DNA of 64,000 bases from Neophaeotheca triangularis. Lineage: Eukaryota. The translations under genes were made by a program, and so were the position numbers. The stretch is from positions 372,001 through 436,000 of the forward strand of contig BAAIJX010000014.1 in NCBI GenBank assembly GCA_054600435.1. Reading direction: 5' to 3'. The notes under the pieces were generated by a model. It did not search any database. It saw nothing but the letters and a program-made list of their open reading frames with translations, and had not been told where the DNA came from. This document shows positions 104 through 63,301 of this stretch, one piece after another (position 1 is the first letter of the stretch; each line of letters opens with the position of its first letter).

Positions 104-3054
104 ATGTTCGTCTACAAGCGCGGTACGTTCTCCCATCATCTTCATTCGCAGTTCAAAAGGGTAGCAGCGCCGTAGTCGTAACACTGCCCGCCACCATATC
201 TTTTTGTTGCCATTTTCTCGATTTGAACACGACACTGACACGCTTCACAGATGGGCGCAAGGAACGCGTGCAATTCGACAAGATCACTGCTCGCGTATCG
301 AGGCTATGTTATGGCCTCGACCCGGAGCACGTTGACGCCGCCGCTATCACCATGAAGGTCATTGCCGGTGTCTACCAGGGCGTCACCACCATACAGTTGG
401 ACGATTTGGTACGTCTTCCCACCCATCGCGTACAAGGGGAGACTGATACTGATTCCATCCACAAATAGGCTGCAGAGACCGCCGCATACATGACCGTCAC
501 CCACCCAGACTACGCCATCCTCGCTGCTCGCATAGCAGTTTCCAATCTCCACAAGCAGACAAAGAAGCAGTTCTCCGCAGTCATACAAGACTTGTACAGC
601 TATGTCAACCCCAAGACAGGGAAAGATGCGCCGATGATCGCCAAGTACACATACGATATTGTCCAGAAGCACGCCGAGGAGCTCAACTCTGCCATCGTCT
701 ACGACCGTGACTTCAACTACCAGTACTTTGGTTTCAAGACACTCGAACGCTCGTACCTGCTTCGCCTTGACGGCAAGGTCGCCGAGCGTCCGCAGCACAT
801 GATCATGCGTGTGGCTGTAGGAATCCATGGAGAAGACATAGAAGCCGCCATTGAGACCTACAACTACATGTCGAACAAGTACTTCACACACGCCTCGCCG
901 ACCCTGTTCAGTGCAGGCACACCACAGGCTCAGCTCGCATCTTGCTTCCTCATCGACATGAAGGACGACAGCATAGACGGCATCTACGACACTCTGAAGA
1001 CATGCGCCATGATCTCCAAGAATGCCGGTGGTATTGGCTTCAACTGCCACCGCATCAGAGCCACAGGTTCCTACATCAGCGGTACCAACGGTACTTCCAA
1101 CGGCCTCGTACCATTGCTCCGTGTTTACAACAACACTGCGCGTTATGTCGACCAGGGTGGCAACAAGCGTCCAGGTGCCTTCGCCGTCTACCTCGAGCCG
1201 TGGCACGCGGACATGTTCCAGTTCCTCGACCTTCGTAAGAACCACGGCAAGGAGGAGGTTCGTGCTCGCGACCTCTTTTATGCCCTCTGGATTCCCGATC
1301 TGTTCATGAAGCGTGTTGAGCAGAACAGCACTTGGACTCTGATGTGCCCCAACGAGTGCCCTGGCCTCGCCGATGTTTACGGCGACGAGTTCGAGGAGCT
1401 GTACGAGCGCTACGAGAGGGAAGGCAAGGGACGTGAGACCGTCAGAGCACAGAAACTCTGGTATGCCATCCTCGAGGCACAGACGGAGACTGGAACCCCT
1501 TTTATGTGTTACAAGGACGCCGCCAACCGCAAAAGCAACCAAAAGAACCTCGGCACCATTCGCAGCTCCAACCTCTGCACGGAGATTATGGAGTACACTG
1601 CCCCCGATGAGGTCGCCGTGTGCAACCTCGCATCTCTGGCTCTGCCTACCTACGTCGACGCTGTCAACGACACCTATGACTTTGCGAAGCTGCACGAAGT
1701 CACTCAGGTTGTCACGAAGAACTTGAACAAGATCATCGAAATCAACCACTATCCTGTGCCAGAAGCTCGCAAGAGCAACTTCCGTCACAGGCCTATCGGT
1801 CTGGGTGTTAGCGGTCTCGCTGACGCCTTCCTCGCCCTTCGCATGCCTTTCGACTCGGACGAGGCCCGTCAGCTGAACAAGCAGATCTTCGAGACCATCT
1901 ACCACGCTGCTTTGACCGCCTCTTGCGATCTTGCTGAGAAGCTTGGCCCATATGAGACTTACGAAGGGTCCCCTGTCTCGAAGGGCGAGCTTCAGTATGA
2001 GATGTGGGGTGTTACACCCACTGATCTCTGGGACTGGGAATCTCTCAAGGCCAAGATTGCCCAACATGGCGTCCGCAATTCTCTCCTCGTCGCACCCATG
2101 CCGACGGCATCCACCTCGCAGATCATGGGTTTCAACGAGTGCTTCGAGCCCTACACCAGCAACATCTATTCCCGTCGTGTGCTCGCGGGTGAGTTCCAGG
2201 TTGTTAACCCTTGGCTGCTCAAGGACCTCGTCGACCGTGGTCTCTGGTCCGACAACATGAAGAACCGCATCATTGCCGACGGTGGCTCGATTCAGCGCGT
2301 GCCCAATATCCCCGACGACCTCAAAGCACTTTACAAGACCGTCTGGGAGCTTTCCCAACGTCATATTGTGCAAATGGCCGCCGACCGTGGTGCTTTCATC
2401 GACCAATCGCAATCCCTCAACATCCACATGAAGGAGCCCACCATGGGCAAGATCACCAGCATGCACTTCACAGGCTGGAAGCTCGGTCTCAAGACCGGCA
2501 TGTACTACCTGCGCACCATGGCTGCATCGGCCCCGATTCAGTTCACCGTCGACCAAGAGGCACTCAACGTCGTCGACACCAACGTCGCCAAGAACGTTGC
2601 AGCCAAGAAGCGCGCTGCCACCGGCAACATCCCCCAGAAACCCGCCGTCCCAAGCCCGATGTACCAAAGCGCTCAGCCCAACGGTACCAGCGAGAACGAA
2701 GCCCCAAAAGACGTTCCCACACCTGCCACCACTCCTCCCGCTGAATCCGAACCCAAGCAGCAAAAGCGCGAGTTCTCCCGCTCCAGCAGCAAGCGCGATA
2801 TCGTCAACCCCGAGTTCCCTGCCGATGTAGACGACGGCGAGAGCCCCAAGGTCCTCGCCACCGACGGCGTAAACGGAGTTCCCAAGGAAGAGGAGTTGCC
2901 CGAACCCAGCCAGCAGGCCGCCGGTGCTAAGAAGGATGGCCAGGAGGAGGACAAGGGCGCCGACAGCAAGGAACGCGAGGGCGACATCTACGCTGATGCC
3001 GTGCTTGCTTGCAGTATTGAGAACCCTGAGAGCTGTGTTATGTGCAGTGGTTAG
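104..3054 (+). CDS. RNR1: Ribonucleoside-diphosphate reductase large subunit (exons 104-122, 251-408, 469-3054; 920 aa)
   Basis: Spliced N-terminus [19 protein letters not shown] (ATP cone); SNLCTEI catalytic motif; [21 protein letters not shown]-terminal CVMCSG; two GTACGT..AG introns join in frame. Confidence 0.98.
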
Positions 3055-3738
3055 ATGTAATTTATGCATGCGTGGGACGAAGAATTTGACTGATATGCGC
3101 TCGGCGTTTTCGAGATGGCTACTAGGCGTTTTGAGGAAACATGTGGGCACTGGACATGCAACGGATGGGATGGGACGGGATCGGTTTTGTTGGGACGAAT
3201 TGCGCTTCTTATGGATCGCTTGCGCGTATGTAGCATCTTGCCTCGATGGCATAGGTGCACTGCTTGAACAGTGGTATATGCTTGTACTTTGTGCTCTCGT
3301 ACAATACCTAATCCCGAGTCCAAAAACTAACCAACTAGTCCTTCCACGTTGGCCTGTAAGAAAGCACCGACCAGTTCCCAGCAGTCAGCTTCACTCGCCA
3401 ATCCCTTTTTCAAAGTAGGAAACACGTCTTGTCGCTCGGCTGTGGGAGTGCAGGCGGCGGCGAGATGATCTTCTGAGACATTCCACTAGCACGCCGACGT
3501 TAACAAGCTCGAACCCCATCTCAAAGCACTTTCAAGAATCGACGAAAAATACAGTTTAATGTGTACACGATGCGCGGAGAACCGGCTCCACAACACCAAA
3601 CCATGAAAAAAAAAAAACCCAGGGTATCTATCATGTGCTGCATCGCTCAACAGAGCCACGACCCAAACCCAAATAAACAGGCAAAAACCCCCAATCTTAT
3701 CAAGATCCTCGTTAATCCTCCCTACTCTCTCTCTCTCT

Positions 3739-5802
3739 CTAAAAGTCAAACCCACCCGTCAACCCCATGACATTCTCAGGATCCACAACGCCCCTAATCC
3801 GCCTCAACCTCTCCGCATTCTCCTCGCCATACACCTGCTCGGCCGTATAACTCCCAATGGCATAATTGGGATACGCGTTGCCCTCGACGTAAATACCCTC
3901 GTCCTTGGCGACGGCAATCAACCTATCGACGCTCGCGCGGATTTCGTCGCGCCAGTAGTCGTCGTCGCCGGCGTCGAGCCAGGCGAAGTAGAGGTTCAAC
4001 GGCAAGCCCGAGAGCGCGTGCGGGTAGGAGCTGTTGGTGGCGTGGCGGCCGTAGTCTTTGCCGAAGGGCTCGATGTCGTAGCTGAAGAAGATGCCGCTCG
4101 CGTTGAAGAGGCGGTAGTCTTGGGCTTCGGACCAGCAGGCTTGCATGAAGGGGATGGTGAGGGCGGTGGTGGTGAGGGTGTGGAAAGCGCCGCGGCGGCC
4201 CGCTTGGAGGTTCGACGGCGTCGACGAGGCGAAGGAGGCGTAGGGCTGCCGTTGCACGCCGTTGAGGATGGGTTGGATGGAGGCGAAGGGCGCGAAGACT
4301 TCGTCTGGTGGTGACGGCCCATCGTAGAAGACTAGCAGGATTGCGGACTCGGGGAAGCCGGTGTTGAGGGTGAGGATGACTTGGGCTTTTTCGTCGACTT
4401 CGTCGTCGTAGAATTTTTGCGTGGCGTTGATGATGGCGGGGACGTCGTCGGAGGCGTAGATTTGGTAGCCGCCGTAGACTTCGTAGTCTTGTTCGAAGGG
4501 GGTAAAGACGGTTTCGGTCACGAGGCCGAAGCGGTTGAGGCCCCCTTTGAGGGCGAAGAAGAGGTCTGGGGTGGTCTCGTTGACTTGGGTTAGGTTGCCT
4601 GTGGGGGTCACTAGGGTAAAGCTTTGGACGGTGTCGACTGTCAAGCCTGCGTAGATTCGTCAGCTGGTAGGCCGGCTGTGTTGTGCTTGTCGGTGTGGAC
4701 TAACCGTATTGGTTCGTGAACCAGGAGTAGCCTCCACCGAGTGTGAAGCCGCCAGTACCCGGCCCTTGTACTCTGCCGCCGTTGAGTTGCAATCCTGTGC
4801 CGTTCATCTTCTCATAGGCATCAGACCAGAGCTGGTGGCAAATATTAGTTTCTGTTTAGAAAGGGCCATGGATGTGCCAGCAGACTTACGTTACCCATAC
4901 CGACCGTCACACTGGTACGGTCATCGTTGATATCGACGTGATCCAACCTGTTCAGAGTAATCTGCTCATGTTAGCAAAAAGGACTTGCTATCTAGAAAAG
5001 CTCTTTACCCACCAAGATTCCCTCTGTCGAAGAGAAGCCCTGGTTAGAAGCATGTCCGCCGGACTTGATAGCGAAGGGTGTTCTACTGTCGCCAATGAGC
5101 TTCATCGTAATGGCTGCGTCTTCGTTCGATCCGACCTCGACGACACACGACGATCGTTGTGTCGAAGAGGGCATGTAGTGTTTGAGTCTTTGAGTATATT
5201 GCCAGAAGGCCACTGGGATTGAGCGTCAGTCGATTCGATTCGCCGGCATCCGTGCGATCTCGCAACTTACGGGGATAAACCACTTCGCTATCGTCTGAGA
5301 TTTGATTGCTGATTTCACTGCATACGCCTGCTGTTGTGTCGTTGTAACGGGACATGCTGGCTATGAGGTTCGCAATACGGTTGGCGAGGGTGTCTGCTTC
5401 ATCGGTGGCTTCGTCGGTGGCGTCGTTTATTGCGTCCGTCATGCTGCTAAGGACGTCGTTCGCTCCGACGGCAACGGTTCCCGCCGCATCACTTGCATCG
5501 CTGACCACGCTGCTTACTGCCTCTTGTCCGCTTTCGGCAGCACTGCTCGCTGCGGCCTCGGCGGTGCTAACAGCTCCCTCGACCCCGTCGATTGCCGTGC
5601 TGGCAGCCCCTTGTACCCCATCGACTACAGTGCTCGCAGCTCCTTCTACTCCATCCCTAACCGTGCTTACCGCGCCACCGATGGCGCTGCTGGCAGCGTC
5701 TCTCGTGTCGTCTACCGCGCTGTTGATGTCGTCGATAAAATCGAACTGTGCATTGCTGGATGTGGCCAAAGACAACAGAGCAAGCGCCCCAAGGAAACGC
5801 AT
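3739..5802 (-). CDS. Secreted FAD-linked oxidoreductase (FAD_binding_4 / berberine-bridge-like), multi-exon
   Basis: Signal peptide MRFLGALALLSLATSSNA; FAIKSGGHASNQGFSST covalent-FAD motif; DLFFALKGGLNRFGLVT; C-terminal YPNYA...YGEENAERLRRIRGVVDPENV. Confidence 0.9.
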
Positions 5803-57778: not shown

Positions 57779-59864
57779 ATGTCAAGCGTGAACGCTGCTG
57801 AGGCTTCCGGGAAATCTGGTGAGTAATTTGCATCCGATCGAACAGTTGGCTGCGACCCTACTCGGCTGCTGGGGCTGAAGATCGATTGAGTGGTCGCCAG
57901 GCTGACGCAAGCAACCATGTAGCTTCCAAAAAGAAGAACAAGAAGAGCAAGAAGAAGGCCAATGGCAAGGCCAAAGAGGGAGCCGGCCAGGAACACATAA
58001 ATGGTGTTGCAAACCAGGCGCAGGACGATGGGGACGACGACGATGATGGGGATGATGCTGGCGAACAGCAACAGCCACTGGTCAGAAATACATTGCTGGC
58101 TTGATACCTTGGAGTCTGCGACTGACTTGGCTGACACAGTCACGAGCGAATTCTGTAAAGCATCAAGAGCAAGACACGTCGAACGAGCCTTCTGCGACGC
58201 CTTCTGAACCTACGACAGCTGCAACGGACGAGCAACCCCCAAGTCAAGACCCTCCTTCAAGCAATGGAGCCCAGTATAGCAGCTCCGACATCGTAAAAGA
58301 AGAAACTGGCGGTGACAACAACCTGGAAGCGCAGTTGGAAGATGCAGCTGCGCCAACAGCCAATCTCGATGCTGAAACCCGCTTCGCAGCCCTCCAAACC
58401 GAACGGGACAATCTTCGCAGTGAAGTGACGTCTCTACGCAAAAGCCTCGAGAGCTTACAAGCAGCTTCCTCAAACAGCAACGATGCCGCCGACCAGGACC
58501 AAAATGAGAGCAAGTCAGACTCTGAAGAGCTCAACAACTTGCGCGAAGAACTCGAGCAGACTCAACAGGGCAAAGAGCATGCCGAAACCCAGTACCGCAA
58601 TCTGCTAGGCAAAGTCAACACCATCCGCTCCCAGCTAGGTGAACGACTGAAACAAGACGCAGAAGAGCTTGCGCAAGCTCGACAGCAAATTGAAGAGCTG
58701 GAAGGGGACAAGACTCAGACCGGACAAGAGAACGAGCGACTACAAGCTAGGATGGAAGAATTGGATTCACAAATCAAATCACAGAATGCCGAACTCGAAG
58801 ACCTCCGCTCCAGAACCCACCTCTCTACTTCCAACTGGGCCAAAGAGCGCGACGACATGTTATCTCGCGAAGCCTTCGTGCGAGAAGAATACGAAGCGGC
58901 GAAGCAAGCGATGCAAGACTGGGAGATCCTAGCAACGGAAGAGCGCTCCCGCCGCGAAAACCTCGAAGAGCGCGCCCAAGAGCTCGAAGAGCAACTCACC
59001 TCTCAGACCACCCTCTACGAACGCTTGCGCGGCGAAGCGGAAACCCAAAACTCAACGGTCGAAGGTCTGCAACGCGCCCTGCGAGATCTTCAAGAGGAAC
59101 GAAAACGCGAGCTCCGCGAAATGGTAGAGCAATCGCAATCGCAACTCGAAGAACTGCGCTCGCAAGCCAAAACCGCCGAGACTCGAACCACCGACCTCCA
59201 AACCCAACTCAGCAGCACGCAAAAGGACCTCGAACGCGCCCTTCCCTTTGAGCGCGAAGTCAAGGAAAAGAACCTGCTAATCGGCAAACTGCGCCACGAA
59301 GCGGTAATCCTCAACGACCACCTAACCAAAGCTTTGCGTTTCCTCAAACGCGGCAAGCCCGAAGACAATGTCGACCGCCAACTCGTGACAAACCATTTCC
59401 TGCACTTCCTCGCTCTCGACCGCTCCGATCCGAAGAAATTCCAGGTTTTGCAGCTGATTGCCGCGTTGTTGGCCTGGAACGAGCAGCAGCGCGAGCAAGC
59501 GGGACTGTTGCGTCAGGGCAGTGGCGTGGGTGGCTTGTCTGCTGGGGGAAGCTTGAGGTTGCCTGTTAGTCCTTTTAGGCGCTCCGGCAGTACGCCGGCG
59601 CTGAATGATTTGACCGCGCCGCCGGACAGTCCTGGGGGTAAGGAGACGTTGGCGGAGTTGTGGAGTGATTTCTTGGAGAGGGAGGCTGAGGCCGGTGGTG
59701 GTGGGGGTGGGGATAGTAGGAGGGGGAGTGTAGTGCAGGGGAGTCAGAGCGCTAAGGGTAGTCCTGTTGTTGGGAATGCGAGAGCCGCTAGTCCGGAAGT
59801 CAGGAGGAAGGAGAGTCAAGGTCAGGGTCAGAATATCGGGGCTGCCGGGGGCGGTGGTGGGTGA
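57779..59864 (+). CDS. RUD3: Golgin Rud3/GMAP-210 family (exons 57779-57818, 57923-58080, 58140-59864)
   Basis: Long coiled coil; EREVKEKNLLIGKLRHEAVILNDHLTKAL; GRAB domain DNVDRQLVTNHFLHFL..KKFQVLQLIAALLAW; LAELWSDFLE. Confidence 0.93.
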
Positions 59865-60042
59865 GGCTGGTGTACTTGGTATAATACGTTCTTCTTGAGC
59901 TTGTCTTTTCTCCTCTGCTTCCATTGTTTACCAAATCTACAAGCTCGACTGAAGCTCACCGTTATGCGAACAAAAGCTTTAAGCCCCCTCGACACACGAT
60001 AAAAGGAAGCCTCACGAAAGACCAGCAAGATGACAACGAGAC

Positions 60043-60154
60043 CCGAACCTCTTGGATTTGAACCAAGGCCTGCTCGCAAACATGAGTTCACCAGGCCCGT
60101 TGGGTGTGTAATGCCGGGGCTGATGCGCTTTCACATCCACTACACTAAGGACCT
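60043..60154 (-). ncRNA. tRNA-like Pol III element (degenerate or rearranged relative of the 60450-60728 gene)
   Basis: A box TAGTGTAGTGG (60147-60137); perfect T arm CTTGG-TTCAAAT-CCAAG (60067-60051); CGAGC-AGGC before the T arm; acceptor stem only 5 of 7 pairs; no anticodon loop. Confidence 0.6.
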
Positions 60155-60436
60155 CTGGTTGTTGGAGGATAGTGGTGACATGGGCCTGGTGGTATATGAT
60201 ATTTGCGAAAGGACAAGCGGCGGTGTCGGTTCATGCGGCTGTCCTGGCAGAGTGCAAACGAAGAGTCCCGGGCCGAGAGTGCTAGCATTCTCTCTTCGAG
60301 CACGAACAGGATAGAGCCGTAGATTCAGGTATGTACGAGAATGTCGAAACGAAAATTTAGAGGAGAAGGCAAGAATTCGACCTTCAGCGAATGTAGCTAC
60401 TAGATCCGATGAGAAAGCTCAGGAGCCCATTCAAGC

Positions 60437-60446
60437 AAAAAGAAAA
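60437..60446 (-). terminator. Pol III terminator TTTTCTTTTT
   Basis: T-run immediately 3' of the tRNA-like gene. Confidence 0.75.
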
Positions 60447-60449
60447 GTC

Positions 60450-60728
60450 TGGATTCTCTCAGGATCGAACTGAGGCCTGCCCGTAAATCTACCCCTGCGG
60501 CCCAAGTCGCGAAGTTCGCGAGGGAGCGAAGTGCTCCAACTCAGCAATCTGCCGAGTTCGACCACTAGGGTCGACGCCCTTGATGGGCAAGACCGCCCAA
60601 TCCGGGCGGATGGATCAACCGATCGTCACCAGTTGACCCTGGGCTCCGAGCGACTTAGAGGCCGCGTGGAGCCCGCGGTGGCTGCAGAGGTGCGAGATCG
60701 AGCCGTGCTACCACTGCACTAAGAATCC
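60450..60728 (-). tRNA. Atypical tRNA or tRNA-like gene, nominal anticodon CTC (Glu), with a 208-nt intron (60692-60485)
   Basis: Acceptor GGATTCT/AGAATCC + A73; T8 A9; D arm GTGC-AGTGGTA-GCAC; anticodon stem GCTCG/CGGGC; variable loop AGGC; T arm CTCAG-TTCGATC-CTGAG; T-run terminator 3 nt downstream. Confidence 0.85.
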
Positions 60729-61805
60729 CTCGTTGTGCTTTGGTGGCGGCGGTAAGGGCTTTGGCGTGTATGTAGTCTGGAGAAGCCGGCAGAGGTGTCA
60801 AACATTGACCCGCAACTCGGTGGTATGCGGCTATCCGGTAGCTTGCAAACGGCGAAAGGGATGGCTCCTGGGCAATGCCCAAATTGTCTCTCTCTCAAGA
60901 CAGAAATGGTTACGGTCCATGGCACTGAGTCTCAATCGCCATGTCCGCGTTCAGTGGCCCTGACAGTCCTCGACAAGAGAAAAGGCCAAGTGCTCAGTGA
61001 TCCAGTTGACCTTGCCCATCATCAGCAGCGGGTTATGGAACCTTTCGAAGCCCAGTTTCCCTCACTGTGGTCCTCCTAAAGGGGACCCAGAGATGCTGTG
61101 TATGCGGAGATTCTTCCTTTCCTCCGTGTTTCCTTGATAGGAACCTCCATGTCATTCCTGCTCTTAGTCCAAGAACCCCTCTCTTGGAAATGCGTGGATG
61201 CGGAGAGATGGAGATGTTCAGGTAGTTGATCAGTGAGCAACTCGAGGTTTGCGATTTAGCCGCCACAGAAATCACTTGGCTTGCAGCTGCTTCTTGCAGG
61301 ACCTCAGCTTGCACGTCACGAATCGTGCCCACATATTCACCGGTCTACAGATCGCACGCAGCACTCTTCGACGAGTCAAACAATCACTTAGTTGACAGTC
61401 GACAGGAGAGCTAGGTCGCGAAGAGAGTAGTACGGATGAGCCAAAGAGTGAAGTCGGCGTCCCACAGCTCTTTCTCGGCGAGCGGTTCTAAGGAATGACC
61501 ATCTCCCAATGCTTCCAAGATTCCTAGATGCTTGGAAAGCAGCTTCAAGACGCACTCCGGGCCTCAAAGTGCATCATCGCATGACTGCTCATGCAGCGGC
61601 TATTATGCTCCCAGTCCTTGCAGGCGATGTTCAGTCAAGTCTTCCCCCAATGTCCGGCTAAATGAGCGTGGAGGCGAAGGCTCTCTGGGCGAGGTATGAG
61701 AGGAGCTGTACCCAGGATGCCTCTGTAAGCAGATATAAAGAGATGGCGGCCTTGACCGGGCTCGAAACCAACGGTATTCCACAAACCATCAGACGACCAA
61801 GCAAC

Positions 61806-63301
61806 ATGTTCACGCCCATCGCAGTCGCAGGCCTCTCATTGGCCGCTGCAGTGCAAAGCGCCACGGTTCACGTCGACCCATGCAAGGAGTACCAGAAGAT
61901 CGATGGCACAGGAATCTCCCAAGCTTTCCAGAGGTCCTTGTACCTATACGAGCTGGACGAGGGGCCTCGAAACGAAGTTCTCGATTTGCTGTTCACGGAG
62001 AAAGGCGCCGGTCTGACAATCTTGCGGAATGGCATTGGCTCGACACCGAACCAGGAGGAGGACTACATGAAGTCCATTGCGCCAACCGCTCCAGCGTCGA
62101 ATGATAGTGAGGTATGTGCGCTTTTCACAGGTATAATCGCAAAGGGCCACACCTAACCTTTTCCAAGCTCAATTTCATCCCTTTCCCTCGAGACGACCAG
62201 TATCAGGTTTGGCTCTCGAAGGAAGCTAAGGCCCGAGGCGTCAACAAGTTCTACGCTAATGCATGGAGTGCTGATGGTTACATGAGTAAGTGCGCTCTTC
62301 CACCCCCCTCGAGACATTTCAGTTGACCGACAACTCGTGCAGAAACGAACGGGACCGATTTCTGGGGCGGGTATCTCTGCGGCGTTTGGAATGCTTCCTG
62401 CGAGAGCGGCGACTGGCGACAAGCCTACGCCGACAAGCTCGTGAGATATGTCCAAATGTACGAAGAGGAAGGTATCCACATTGACTATCTCGGTCCGTGG
62501 AACGAGCCCGATCTCGCGACCTCGTATGCCTCGATGCTGTCCAACGGCAGGCAAGCGGCAGATTTCATTAGAGTGCTCCACCCCACACTCCAGGCGGCAG
62601 GCCTAACGACCGAGATCGCCTGCTGCGAAGGCACAGGCTGGGAGCCAAACCGGGAAATCCTCGAGGAAATCGAAGAGTACGGGCAAAGCGACAATCTCGG
62701 TCTCGTCACCAGCCACGGCTACACCTCATACCCGTCCTTTCCCTTCGACACGCCCCATCCTGTTTGGCAGAGCGAGTGGAGCACTTTCGACGACATCAAC
62801 TACAACTGGTACACGCCGGGCGGCAACATCAGCGACGGCATAACCTGGGCGAACAATATCCGCAACACCTTTGCCGACGCCAACGTCAACGCTTTCTTGT
62901 TCTGGTGGGGCGCGGCAGAGAAGACGGACACCAATGAGTTCCTCATCTGGATCAACGGAACTGAAGTCTACCGCCCTACTAAGCGATTATGGGCCATGGC
63001 GCATTTTGGGAAACGCTTTGTGCGCCAGGGAGCGTACCGTATCGATGCCGAGAGTAACATGTCTTCGCTCAATGCAACTGCTTTTGCGAATACGGATGGA
63101 TCCGTGGCTGTGCAGGTTATTAACAACAGTAACGATACTGAGACTGTAGTGTTGGAGCTGCCATTCGAGGGACGCCGCGTGCAGACGTTTTTGACGAACG
63201 AGGAGGTGGATCTGAAGGAGGGTGTTGCGTGTAGCGGCAAGAATGCAGCGGTAGCAGATGTGCCGGCGCAGTCCTTGATGAGCTTTTATGTATGCGGTTG
63301 A
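61806..63301 (+). CDS. Secreted glycoside hydrolase family 30, subfamily 7-like xylanase, three exons
   Basis: Signal peptide; SQAFQR, GAGLTILRNGIGS, YANAWSA, GDWRQAYA; catalytic NEPD and WQSEW; AFLFWWG, KRLWAMAHF. Confidence 0.92.

Follow-up and report, generated by a model that had tools for sequence, protein, structure and literature searches.

The 208-nt insert that interrupts a nuclear tRNA-Glu(CUC) gene in the window, i.e., the whole 64-kb stretch of DNA that was analysed, is, as judged from its predicted fold, a canonical protein-spliced tRNA intron, which separates tRNA positions 37 and 38 and would present a textbook bulge-helix-bulge motif to the splicing endonuclease (Sen/TSEN). 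Yeast tRNA introns are short, and the present intron is among the longest canonical tRNA introns. For comparison, the canonical tRNA introns of yeasts are reported to have an interquartile range of 15-31 nt (n=3,723; PMC5951914). The explanation that is favoured here, and held with moderate confidence, is that of a genuine, greatly expanded canonical intron, which is removed by proteins and whose hairpins act in cis.

The tRNA gene and its splice motif

The window (54.7% G+C) is eukaryotic and fungal, given the Pfam domains found in its long ORFs (Tcf25, GRAB, Sugar_tr and sulfatase), and is probably from an ascomycete; Ascomycota were the most frequent among the closest Atlas clusters, which serve as leads only. 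When introns were allowed, ARAGORN reported a tRNA-Glu(ctc) at c[60450,60728], and no tRNA was reported at 60450-60728 without the intron option. The parse that ARAGORN proposed, in which an intron of 187 nt is combined with a long mismatched variable arm, was judged inferior to the 208-nt parse (Table 1), which is reproduced by the MFE fold of the precursor. When the exons of this parse were joined by script and returned to ARAGORN, a clean 71-nt cloverleaf of tRNA-Glu(ctc) was obtained, with all four arms intact. The bases read in the exons are U8, A14, G18G19, U33, G53, T54T55C56, A58 and C61, which are taken here to be the usual tRNA invariants. The Glu isotype is suggested by the anticodon CUC alone, and position 37 reads as G. 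Two further ARAGORN predictions of tRNAs with introns (980 and 611 nt) fall within ORFs and were discarded as false positives.

Table 1. Positions of the gene, its splice motif and the predicted arms of its intron, in window coordinates
Feature	Positions	Strand	Basis
Whole nuclear tRNA-Glu(CUC) gene, 279 nt with its intron and 71 nt as the mature tRNA	60450..60728	-	ARAGORN, joined exons, precursor MFE
5' exon, 36 nt; last base G = tRNA position 37	60693..60728	-	Sequence; ARAGORN cloverleaf of joined exons
Intron, 208 nt, 63.5% G+C, at tRNA positions 37/38	60485..60692	-	Own parse from sequence, joined exons, precursor MFE
3' exon, 35 nt; first base A38, last base the discriminator A	60450..60484	-	Sequence; joined exons
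Putative Pol III terminator, TTTTCTTTTT run (T4CT5), four bases past the tRNA 3' end	60437..60446	-	Sequence; Pol III role from general knowledge
Central 4-bp helix, 5' strand A32 U33 C34 U35	60695..60698	-	Sequence; precursor MFE; partner AGAU 60487-60490
Central 4-bp helix, 3' strand AGAU	60487..60490	-	Sequence; precursor MFE
5' bulge of three nt, C36 G37 / C, with the 5' cut predicted to fall after 60693	60692..60694	-	Precursor MFE, between 4-bp helix and closing stem
3' bulge of three nt, U U / A38, with the 3' cut predicted to fall after 60485	60484..60486	-	Precursor MFE
5' strand of the closing stem, ACCUCUGCAGCC, paired with 60491-60502; this stem forms the outer helix of the motif	60680..60691	-	Pair probabilities
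Closing stem, 3' strand GGCCGCAGGGGU	60491..60502	-	Pair probabilities
Arm 1: 7-bp GGGCUCC/GGAGCCC around hairpin GCGGC-CUCUAA-GUCGC (60650-60665)	60641..60674	-	Probability 1.0, 7/7 pairs
Arm 2: 12-bp hairpin GGGUCAACUGGU-GACG-AUCGGUUGAUCC, 3 G.U pairs	60612..60639	-	Probabilities 0.98-1.0
Arm 3, in two forms: a pair of hairpins (CCGCCCG/UGGGCGG; GCCC/GGGC) at 0.38, or a single composite arm of three helices, as in the MFE fold	60575..60609	-	Pair probabilities
Arm 4: hairpin (U)CGACC-CUAGU-GGUCG(A)	60559..60574	-	Probabilities 0.95-1.0, 5 core pairs
Arm 5: 9-bp hairpin AACUCGGCA-GAU-UGCUGAGUU	60538..60558	-	Pair probabilities
Arm 6: hairpin GGAGC-ACUUC-GCUCC	60523..60537	-	Pair probabilities
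Arm 7: hairpin UCGCGA-ACU-UCGCGA	60507..60521	-	Pair probabilities

Runs of T terminate Pol III, and the run TTTTCTTTTT downstream of the gene is the sole run of at least four Ts on the - strand between 60440 and 60740, with none inside the gene. The sequences TAGTGCAGTGG and AGTTCGATCC stand at the places of the A box and the B box, respectively, which they presumably represent, and the spacing between the two is lengthened by 208 bp. The features of a Pol III unit that were looked for are all present, i.e., A and B boxes within the gene, no terminator inside it and a run of T on its 3' side. The lack of an internal TTTT was also considered as a sign of Pol III constraint on the intron, and was set aside given that 3789 of 5000 shuffles were likewise free of TTTT.

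The MFE fold of the precursor (z -6.23) consists of the cloverleaf and a strict helix-bulge-helix-bulge-helix splice motif, in which the 5-bp anticodon stem is followed by 3 nt, 4 bp, 3 nt and the 12-bp closing stem. The anticodon-intron pair is A32-U60487, which closes the bulge formed by UU and A38, and the closing stem comprises 11 pairs, with probabilities of 0.92-1.0, and one mismatch, A60683.C60499. The marks of a canonical protein-spliced intron that were looked for were found, i.e., the location at 37/38, the full cloverleaf on removal of the insert and the bulges at the splice sites. The strict form of the motif is unusual and unexplained, given that the pre-tRNAs of eukaryotes typically present a bulge-helix-loop rather than a strict bulge-helix-bulge, at least in the account given by PMC10485636. 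The same succession of helix, 3 nt, 4 bp, 3 nt and helix, with cuts after the second nucleotide of the bulge and the 37/38 location, is that of the archaeal bulge-helix-bulge introns processed by EndA, from which the present case differs in that the gene sits among fungal genes and has a Pol III terminator. The splicing endonucleases of eukaryotes are described as heterotetramers that also read the body of the tRNA (PMC10485636, PMC10275265).

In the explanation favoured here, Pol III would transcribe the 279-nt gene with its intron included, and the 12-bp closing stem would join the two ends of the intron in space. The anticodon stem, the bulges, the 4-bp helix between the anticodon loop and the intron, and the closing stem would then form the bulge-helix-bulge at the usual spacing from the tRNA body, where the tRNA splicing endonuclease would cleave after G37 (60693) and after U60485, and the halves would be ligated by a fungal ligase of the Trl1 type. 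The seven or eight interior hairpins would work in cis, each folding locally, and through this local folding the 208-nt insert, with its 63% G+C, would be kept compact and would not mispair with the exons or the splice motif. It is this compactness and the undisturbed splice motif that selection would preserve, and the linear intron, once released, would most likely be degraded. Such a cis, or “self-insulating”, role leaves the growth of the intron to 208 nt unexplained, when set beside the interquartile range of 15-31 nt reported for yeasts (PMC5951914).

The search of the whole window against Rfam at the gathering score gave no matches, so that a match to a known Rfam family, which the initial annotation had named as an outcome that would refute it, did not arise. 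At E values of up to 10, only two matches were obtained in 60300-60900, PYLIS_5 and MIR168, both at chance level, and no intron, ribozyme or snoRNA families were among them. In group I introns (Rfam RF00028), the 5' exon ends in U and the intron ends in G. Here, the last base is G in the 5' exon and U in the intron, and these boundaries fit the protein-endonuclease motif exactly. A self-splicing or self-cleaving RNA, i.e., a group I intron or a small ribozyme, may be brought to mind by the structured RNA of about 200 nt inside the anticodon loop, which resembles the group I introns of bacterial tRNAs (PMC8450103), but given the lack of a covariance-model match, the wrong boundary nucleotides and the protein-endonuclease motif found in their place, this reading is close to refuted.

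Folding of the intron

Together with three exon bases (211 nt, - strand), the intron has an MFE of -117.2 kcal/mol, compared with -83.6 +/- 4.4 kcal/mol in 200 dinucleotide shuffles, none of which equalled it (z -7.65). Neither this MFE nor the GC-corrected residual was matched by any of the 2454 control segments of 208 nt that were taken from both strands of the 64-kb window at a step of 52, and the 73 pairs of the fold cover 146 of the 208 nt. The initial annotation had called the intron structured and had proposed a check against dinucleotide-shuffled controls, and on both the shuffles and the genomic segments this claim is borne out.

Every complementarity listed in that annotation is present in the sequence, i.e., the closing stem (60691-60680 with 60502-60491), the eight hairpins, and GGGCTCC (60674-60668) with GGAGCCC (60647-60641). 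The list uses A60558 twice, in the fifth and sixth hairpins. Seven of the eight hairpins survive in the fold, where seven arms are counted, and the exception is the first hairpin, CCGCG/CGCGG, with a pair probability of about 0, which is outcompeted by GGGCUCC/GGAGCCC. The latter had been put forward as a possible pseudoknot; the helix is real, with a probability of 1.0, but it is an ordinary nested helix, and a pseudoknot is therefore unnecessary. In the case of the third and fourth hairpins, the complementarity stands, but the probability of the two-hairpin form is only 0.38 against the composite arm.

The structure had also been considered strand-specific on account of its G-U pairs. The fold of the - strand does contain 7 G.U pairs, but the + strand of the intron likewise folds well (z -5.57), with 5 G.U pairs of its own, and the mismatch A60683.C60499 would become a G.U pair on that strand. 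The 10.8 kcal/mol difference between the strands was rejected as a sign of strand specificity, given that 55% of 396 control segments differ by at least that much. With a mismatch that turns into a G.U pair, a well-folding + strand and an ordinary energy gap, the strand argument is weak.

Comparison with a second strain

The comparison was made with one strain, X2, a close relative in which 57% of the sampled words of the window were present, compared with 10% in the metagenome X3 and none in X4. Of the four sequencing runs considered, none of which is recorded as RNA, X1 may itself be the origin of the window. Two pieces from X3 (60134-60284 and 60310-60460) extend no further into the gene than its final 11 bases and stop short of the intron. 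In X2, a contig of 315 nt covers 60410-60721 and carries the same gene and intron, the latter with 6 substitutions and a 3-nt insertion relative to the window. None of the six substitutions breaks the predicted helices (P of about 0.015 under random placement): two of them turn a G-C pair into G.U, two add a pair, and the remaining two fall within an internal loop or a linker. For example, the end pair of arm 2 is kept as G.U by C60612>U, an extra A-U pair with U60564 in arm 4 arises through C60568>A, and C60666>G, which breaks the first hairpin of the initial annotation, adds a G.U pair with U60649 in arm 1. The insertion is equivalent to a longer linker ahead of the arm 4 hairpin, and the MFE fold of the variant adopts the two-hairpin form of arm 3. 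The MFE of the X2 intron is -116.8, compared with -116.9 in the window and -108.7 +/- 4.2 in random substitution sets, and 3.5% of 400 such sets retain the MFE as well as X2 does.

The fold of the intron thus appears, from the sequences of the two strains, to have been kept between them. On the other hand, no compensatory double change was seen in the intron in the X2 comparison, and the intron, at 6/208 (2.9%), has diverged no less than the flanks have (0.7-6.6%). Given this, selection on the fold hangs on one test, with P of about 0.015-0.035. The earlier proposal that the RNA is under selection retains modest support, in that none of the six X2 substitutions is disruptive, but it is backed neither by a compensatory double change nor by a divergence below that of the flanks.

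The exons present only one difference from X2, at 60476 in the variable loop, which bears on the possibility that the expansion throttles or disables the tRNA gene, through slower maturation, a shielded anticodon loop or a drift to a pseudogene. Such an effect has been put forward for the long introns of the tRNA-Leu(CAG) genes in budding yeasts, together with protection against anticodon nucleases (PMC5951914), and the distance between the A and B boxes is indeed stretched by 208 bp. However, the cloverleaf of the exons is perfect, the splice motif is not decayed but ideal, and the terminator is intact, with no T4 run inside the gene (which is also the case of the intron in the 3789 of 5000 shuffles mentioned above), and a throttled or disabled gene is considered unlikely.

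The exceptional fold, as measured against the shuffles and the 2454 genomic segments, and the X2 differences, which spare or improve the structure, would also suit an excised intron that is itself a stable functional non-coding RNA, acting in trans or as a protein scaffold, for which the tRNA gene would be a cassette that provides Pol III expression and processing. Xrn1 requires a single-stranded 5' end, and the predicted free intron has 1 unpaired nucleotide at its 5' end, ahead of the 12-bp G+C-rich stem, and 6 at its 3' end. Given that the decay of yeast tRNA introns requires the Rlg1/Trl1 kinase and Xrn1 (PMC4102763), this configuration should hinder the 5'-3' exonuclease route, and the intron could accumulate. 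In addition, the free tRNA introns of yeast are reported to negatively regulate mRNAs (bioRxiv 10.1101/2025.11.19.689297). This possibility is nevertheless quite unlikely, considering that no Rfam family is matched, that the sequence of the intron is not more conserved than its flanks, and that fungi are reported to be without the RtcB-type ligase that lies behind the stable circular tRNA introns of animals (PMC4090602). The intron also has no RTGATGA (C box), no ANANNA (H box) and no ACA, and its single CTGA lies within a stem; with these boxes absent and no Rfam snoRNA family matched, a box C/D or H/ACA guide RNA was rejected. If the intron did act in this manner, a seven-arm RNA shielded from decay by the Trl1 kinase and Xrn1 would be a fungal counterpart of the tricRNAs of animals, without circularisation.

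In another contig of X2, of depth 64.5, the 5' exon is matched apart from four differences in the acceptor stem, and the match then jumps from 60678 to 60512, which skips the middle 165 nt; the shorter side of the joint measures 30 nt. This contig hints at a paralogous tRNA that shares only the ends of the intron, as might result if an ancestral intron of about 43 nt had received inserted DNA in its loop, whether as hairpin elements (palindromic or mobile) or as local duplications, with the hairpins as palindromes at the DNA level rather than products of selection on the RNA. Several arms are indeed perfect DNA palindromes, and the + strand folds with a z of -5.57. However, no further copy of any stretch of the intron longer than 12 nt was found in the 64-kb window, Tandem Repeats Finder returned no rows for 60400-60800, and no direct repeat was seen in the sequence flanking the closing stem. 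Exact scans were likewise empty, both for the 28-nt hairpin in the contigs of prokaryotic genomes and for the segment from the exon-intron junction through the closing stem in viral contigs, and the X2 substitution pattern favours constraint at the RNA level. An origin by insertion is considered unlikely, and, as it concerns only the origin of the interior, it is compatible with the explanation of an expanded canonical intron. In a separate scan, a 20-nt piece of the 5' exon was located at three loci in metagenomes, all of which were dismissed as chance matches in G+C-rich, coding-like DNA, where ARAGORN found no tRNA with or without introns.

Relation to known tRNA introns

The closest precedent found is, by analogy, that of the structured introns carried by the tRNA-Leu(CAG) genes of some budding yeasts. 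Canonical introns of 134-318 nt with extensive predicted structure are described in the tRNA-Leu(CAG) of Kluyveromyces, Eremothecium and Lachancea kluyveri (tL-CAG-Z; Krassowski et al. 2018, PMC5951914). The initial annotation could not assign the RNA to a known class, a view that gives way to the assignment of the insert as a canonical 37/38 protein-spliced intron, a type of which such long structured members are known (PMC5951914). Compared by their description, the tL-CAG-Z introns share with the present intron the canonical position, a length of more than 130 nt (208 nt here) and heavy predicted structure, and they are missed by tRNAscan-type tools at default settings (PMC5951914), as the gene here is missed by ARAGORN without the intron option. 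The host genes differ, being a tRNA-Leu(CAG) of the Saccharomycetaceae orthogroup Z in the yeasts (PMC5951914) and a tRNA-Glu(CUC) with no apparent link to the reassignment of CUG here. The present intron resembles the tL-CAG-Z introns but, given the anticodon CUC, falls outside their orthologous family. The G+C of the window (54.7%) and the amount of contig sequence in X1, X2 and X4 (32-36 million letters) also do not resemble those budding yeasts.

Other long or persistent tRNA introns offer partial parallels. The tricRNAs of metazoans, which are circular RNAs from tRNA introns (PMC4536317), are comparable in that a long structured tRNA intron could likewise persist after splicing here, but they are circularised by a ligase of the RtcB type, and fungi are reported with Trl1 and no RtcB homologue (PMC4090602). 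The fitRNAs of S. cerevisiae are excised fungal tRNA introns with a life of their own, and are described as acting via long complementarity to mRNAs (bioRxiv 10.1101/2025.11.19.689297). In the literature searched, no description was found of a tRNA-Glu with a long intron, or of such tRNA introns in filamentous ascomycetes.

The literature searched yielded no published giants other than the tRNA-Leu(CAG) introns that PMC5951914 links to the genetic-code change in budding yeasts. The present intron adds another, independent case, from a different tRNA and an apparently different ascomycete lineage, which indicates that expansion beyond 200 nt is not peculiar to that story of code change. Default tRNA finders overlook such genes, given that ARAGORN without the intron option and Rfam were both blank here. 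With its archaeal-style strict splice motif and a fold that is seemingly maintained, the intron provides a natural substrate for the study of how tRNA introns grow and of how the eukaryotic endonuclease and Pol III handle very long inserts, and it bears on whether the long structured tRNA introns of fungi may persist as RNAs in themselves.

The tRNA-Glu gene, its splice motif and its surroundings

The tRNA gene can be read by inspection at 60728-60450 on the - strand, and it is called as tRNA-Glu(ctc) at c[60450,60728] by ARAGORN when introns are allowed; in its default mode, the program called no tRNA in the region. ARAGORN's own parse, in which the intron has 187 nt and the variable arm is long and mismatched, is inferior to the 208-nt parse preferred here (see table), which coincides exactly with the intron coordinates of the initial annotation, made by a model from the sequence alone. 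When the exons were joined by script from the window sequence, ARAGORN returned a clean cloverleaf of 71 nt, and the putative isotype, Glu, was assigned from the anticodon CUC alone. The T run beyond the discriminator is the sole run of at least four T within 60440-60740. The G at 60729, directly 5' of tRNA position 1, is probably leader sequence only.

The 279-nt precursor has a minimum free energy (MFE) of -143.3 kcal/mol (z -6.23), and its MFE structure retains the cloverleaf; a 4-bp helix (A32-U35 with AGAU, 60490-60487) continues the stack of the 5-bp anticodon stem and is followed by two 3-nt bulges (C36 G37|C and UU|A38) and then the long closing stem. As modelled, the precursor contains a strict helix-bulge-helix-bulge-helix splice motif, in which both cuts are predicted to fall after the second base of the bulge.

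Coordinates of the tRNA gene features, the flanking ORFs and the intron substitutions in the second strain (X2)
Feature	Position	Strand	Basis or effect
Anticodon stem	GCUCG 60703-60699 with CGGGC 60483-60479	-	preferred parse
Anticodon loop	A32 U33 C34 U35 C36 G37 / A38	-	preferred parse
Intron, 208 nt	60692-60485	-	preferred parse
T run TTTTCTTTTT	starts four bases past discriminator A	-	sequence
Flanking ORF, GRAB-domain protein	58101-59864	+	domain search
Flanking ORF, GH30-like fragment	62441-63301	+	domain search
X2 substitution	C60612>U	-	G-C pair to G.U
X2 substitution	C60664>U	-	G-C pair to G.U
X2 substitution	C60666>G	-	internal-loop C/U juxtaposition to G.U pair with U60649
X2 substitution	C60568>A	-	extra A-U pair with U60564, top of hairpin 5
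X2 substitution	A60667>U	-	internal loop
X2 substitution	U60610>C	-	linker

The window is eukaryotic, with sparse ORFs, the long ones carrying Tcf25, GRAB, sugar-transporter, sulfatase and PHD/Forkhead domains, and the closest Atlas clusters of two of its proteins are commonest in Ascomycota, as leads only. The tRNA gene lies alone in approximately 1.8 kb devoid of ORFs of at least 100 aa. Elsewhere, ORFs of 982 aa (304-3252, -) and 854 aa (490-3054, +) overlap almost fully on opposite strands, and the former has no Pfam match at E up to 0.001. The 208-nt scan ranked 4340-4700 on the + strand second for structure within the window (361 nt, MFE -156.5, z -6.25). This stretch runs antisense to an ORF (3739-4644, -) whose C-terminus carries a berberine-bridge domain (BBE, PF08031), and it could be either an antisense RNA or an artefact of G/U-rich antisense sequence. 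Two further ARAGORN calls, made with unlimited intron length, lie inside long ORFs and look like intron-mode false positives, namely tRNA-Ser(cga) at 1090-2164 (-), whose intron would span 980 nt, and tRNA-Leu(aag) at 3851-4554 (+), whose intron would span 611 nt.

The fold of the intron

The observation of a structured intron is real and far beyond chance. The intron reaches an MFE of -116.9 kcal/mol; 73 pairs (seven of them G.U) involve 146 of the 208 nt. The 211-nt stretch 60485-60695 has a z of -7.65, and none of 200 dinucleotide shuffles folded as well. None of the 2454 windows of 208 nt taken on both strands (step 52) matched the intron in either energy or G+C-corrected residual, the nearest non-overlapping one being some 18 kcal/mol higher in energy.

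All the helices listed in the initial annotation are present at their coordinates, and the complementarities of its eight hairpins (numbered 5' to 3' on the - strand) hold, but hairpin 1 (CCGCG/CGCGG) has a pair probability near 0; hairpins 3 and 4 (0.38) are in competition with a composite arm, and A60558 had been assigned to two hairpins. The segments GGGCUCC and GGAGCCC, thought to form a possible pseudoknot, in fact make a plain nested helix (probability 1.0) around a GCGGC/GUCGC hairpin. The argument that the fold is strand-specific proved weak: folding is good on the + strand too (z -5.57), the - strand fold has seven G.U pairs versus one A.C mismatch that becomes G.U on the + strand, and the difference of 10.8 kcal/mol between the strands is ordinary here, being matched or exceeded in 55% of 396 control windows.

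No Rfam family reached its gathering score across the whole window, and at E up to 10 the only matches within 60300-60900 were PYLIS_5 and MIR168, both at chance level, so none of the models for group I introns, ribozymes or snoRNAs is matched. A motif scan of the intron found neither a C box nor an H box nor ACA; the one CUGA of the intron sits within a stem. Self-splicing is extremely improbable: the exon ends in G and the intron in U, boundaries which do not fit the group I rule. The earlier view of a selected ncRNA of no known class finds partial support: structure is well borne out and selection modestly so, but the intron can be classed as a giant canonical tRNA intron.

Exact scans of prokaryotic and viral collections, with a hairpin word and an exon-intron junction word respectively, gave no matches, and three metagenome loci matching a 20-nt exon word were chance matches without a tRNA. 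No part of the intron longer than 12 nt has a second copy in the window, and the intron contains no tandem repeat.

Variation in a second strain and a lead on origin

Four public sequencing runs (X1-X4), none on record as RNA, were compared over 59800-61400, where X1 is identical to the window, of which it may be the source, X3 covers the downstream flank only and X4 has no match. X2, which shares its organism label with X1, contains a 315-nt contig (60410-60721, depth 101) with the same gene and intron, differing by seven substitutions, six of them within the intron, and by a 3-nt insertion equivalent to a longer linker before hairpin 5 (UCGACC/GGUCGA). The intron MFE is -116.8 in X2 versus -116.9 in the window, and C60666>G, which breaks hairpin 1 as first drawn, fits the nested arm. 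When the same substitution types were placed at random, zero disruptive changes were obtained in only 1.5% of 2000 trials (1.6% under a generic transition/transversion model), and the mean MFE was -108.7 +/- 4.2, with 3.5% of 400 sets doing as well as the real variant. Against this support, the single pairwise comparison includes no compensatory double change, and the intron has diverged (6/208) no less than its flanks (7-13/197, 2/236, 3-4/127, 2/287 and 4/337). That the interior is inserted palindromic DNA, with no selection at the RNA level, is decidedly unlikely. Paired X2 contigs over 60243-60439 and 60939-61065, with depths of about 56 and 70 or of 52 and 62, carry different substitutions, and the tRNA contig has a depth of 101, as if the run combined two haplotypes or two strains.

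A further X2 contig, at a depth of 64.5, aligns to the 5' exon apart from four differences in the acceptor stem (60723, 60724, 60726 and 60730) and to the first 15 bases of the intron; it then jumps from 60678 to 60512, omitting the central 165 nt, with 30 nt on the shorter side of the joint. If real, this contig would be a paralogous tRNA gene with only the closing stem in common, a lead which would point to a stem-loop intron of approximately 43 nt as the ancestral state, with its loop inflated here. The X2 joints in the 60427-60730 region are 60512>60678 (skipping 165), 60136>60452 (skipping 315) and 60728>60427 (back 302), and depth over the exons reaches 306 versus about 101, which suggests that this strain has additional copies of the tRNA, perhaps tandemly arranged, whose exons and intron ends are related.

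Proposed splicing and fate of the intron, and its relatives

On the most economical reading, this is probably a genuine, expanded tRNA intron spliced by proteins; the alternatives and this reading are not mutually exclusive. According to reviews, eukaryotic endonucleases depend on a bulge-helix-loop with its anticodon-intron pair, on the tRNA body and on a fixed distance, and the archaeal enzymes recognise an isolated bulge-helix-bulge (PMC10275265, PMC10485636). Because the closing stem would offer both splice sites in an ideal motif, as far from the tRNA body as is canonical, intron length would be irrelevant to the endonuclease. The interior chain of short, independent hairpins may keep the insert, long and rich in G+C, from pairing wrongly with the exons, which would be sufficient reason for helix-sparing substitutions without any function in trans.

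The excised intron may be a stable functional RNA, a quite unlikely reading kept alive by the predicted 5' end of the free intron, which has only one unpaired base before the 12-bp stem. Freed yeast tRNA introns decay via the Rlg1/Trl1 kinase and Xrn1 (PMC4102763), mRNA regulation has been reported for them (bioRxiv 10.1101/2025.11.19.689297), and in animals, tRNA introns become stable circular RNAs (PMC4536317). Fungi have the Trl1 5'-phosphate ligase, without RtcB homologues, and intron frequency is highly variable, with 132 of 143 tRNA genes interrupted in Cryptococcus neoformans (Yoshihisa 2014, PMC4090602).

Among 3,723 yeast tRNA introns, the interquartile range of length is 15-31 nt, and tRNA-Leu(CAG) introns reach 134-318 nt in Kluyveromyces, Eremothecium and Lachancea kluyveri, where the authors speculate that the structure slows maturation or guards the anticodon loop against killer-toxin nucleases (Krassowski et al. 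2018, PMC5951914). That the expansion throttles or degrades the present tRNA gene is unlikely. The literature search found no account of tRNA-Glu with a giant intron, nor of such introns in filamentous ascomycetes. Among fungal tRNA introns, the present one is a new member of a rare but known class, the giant structured canonical introns; its host tRNA is new and its splice motif unusually strict.
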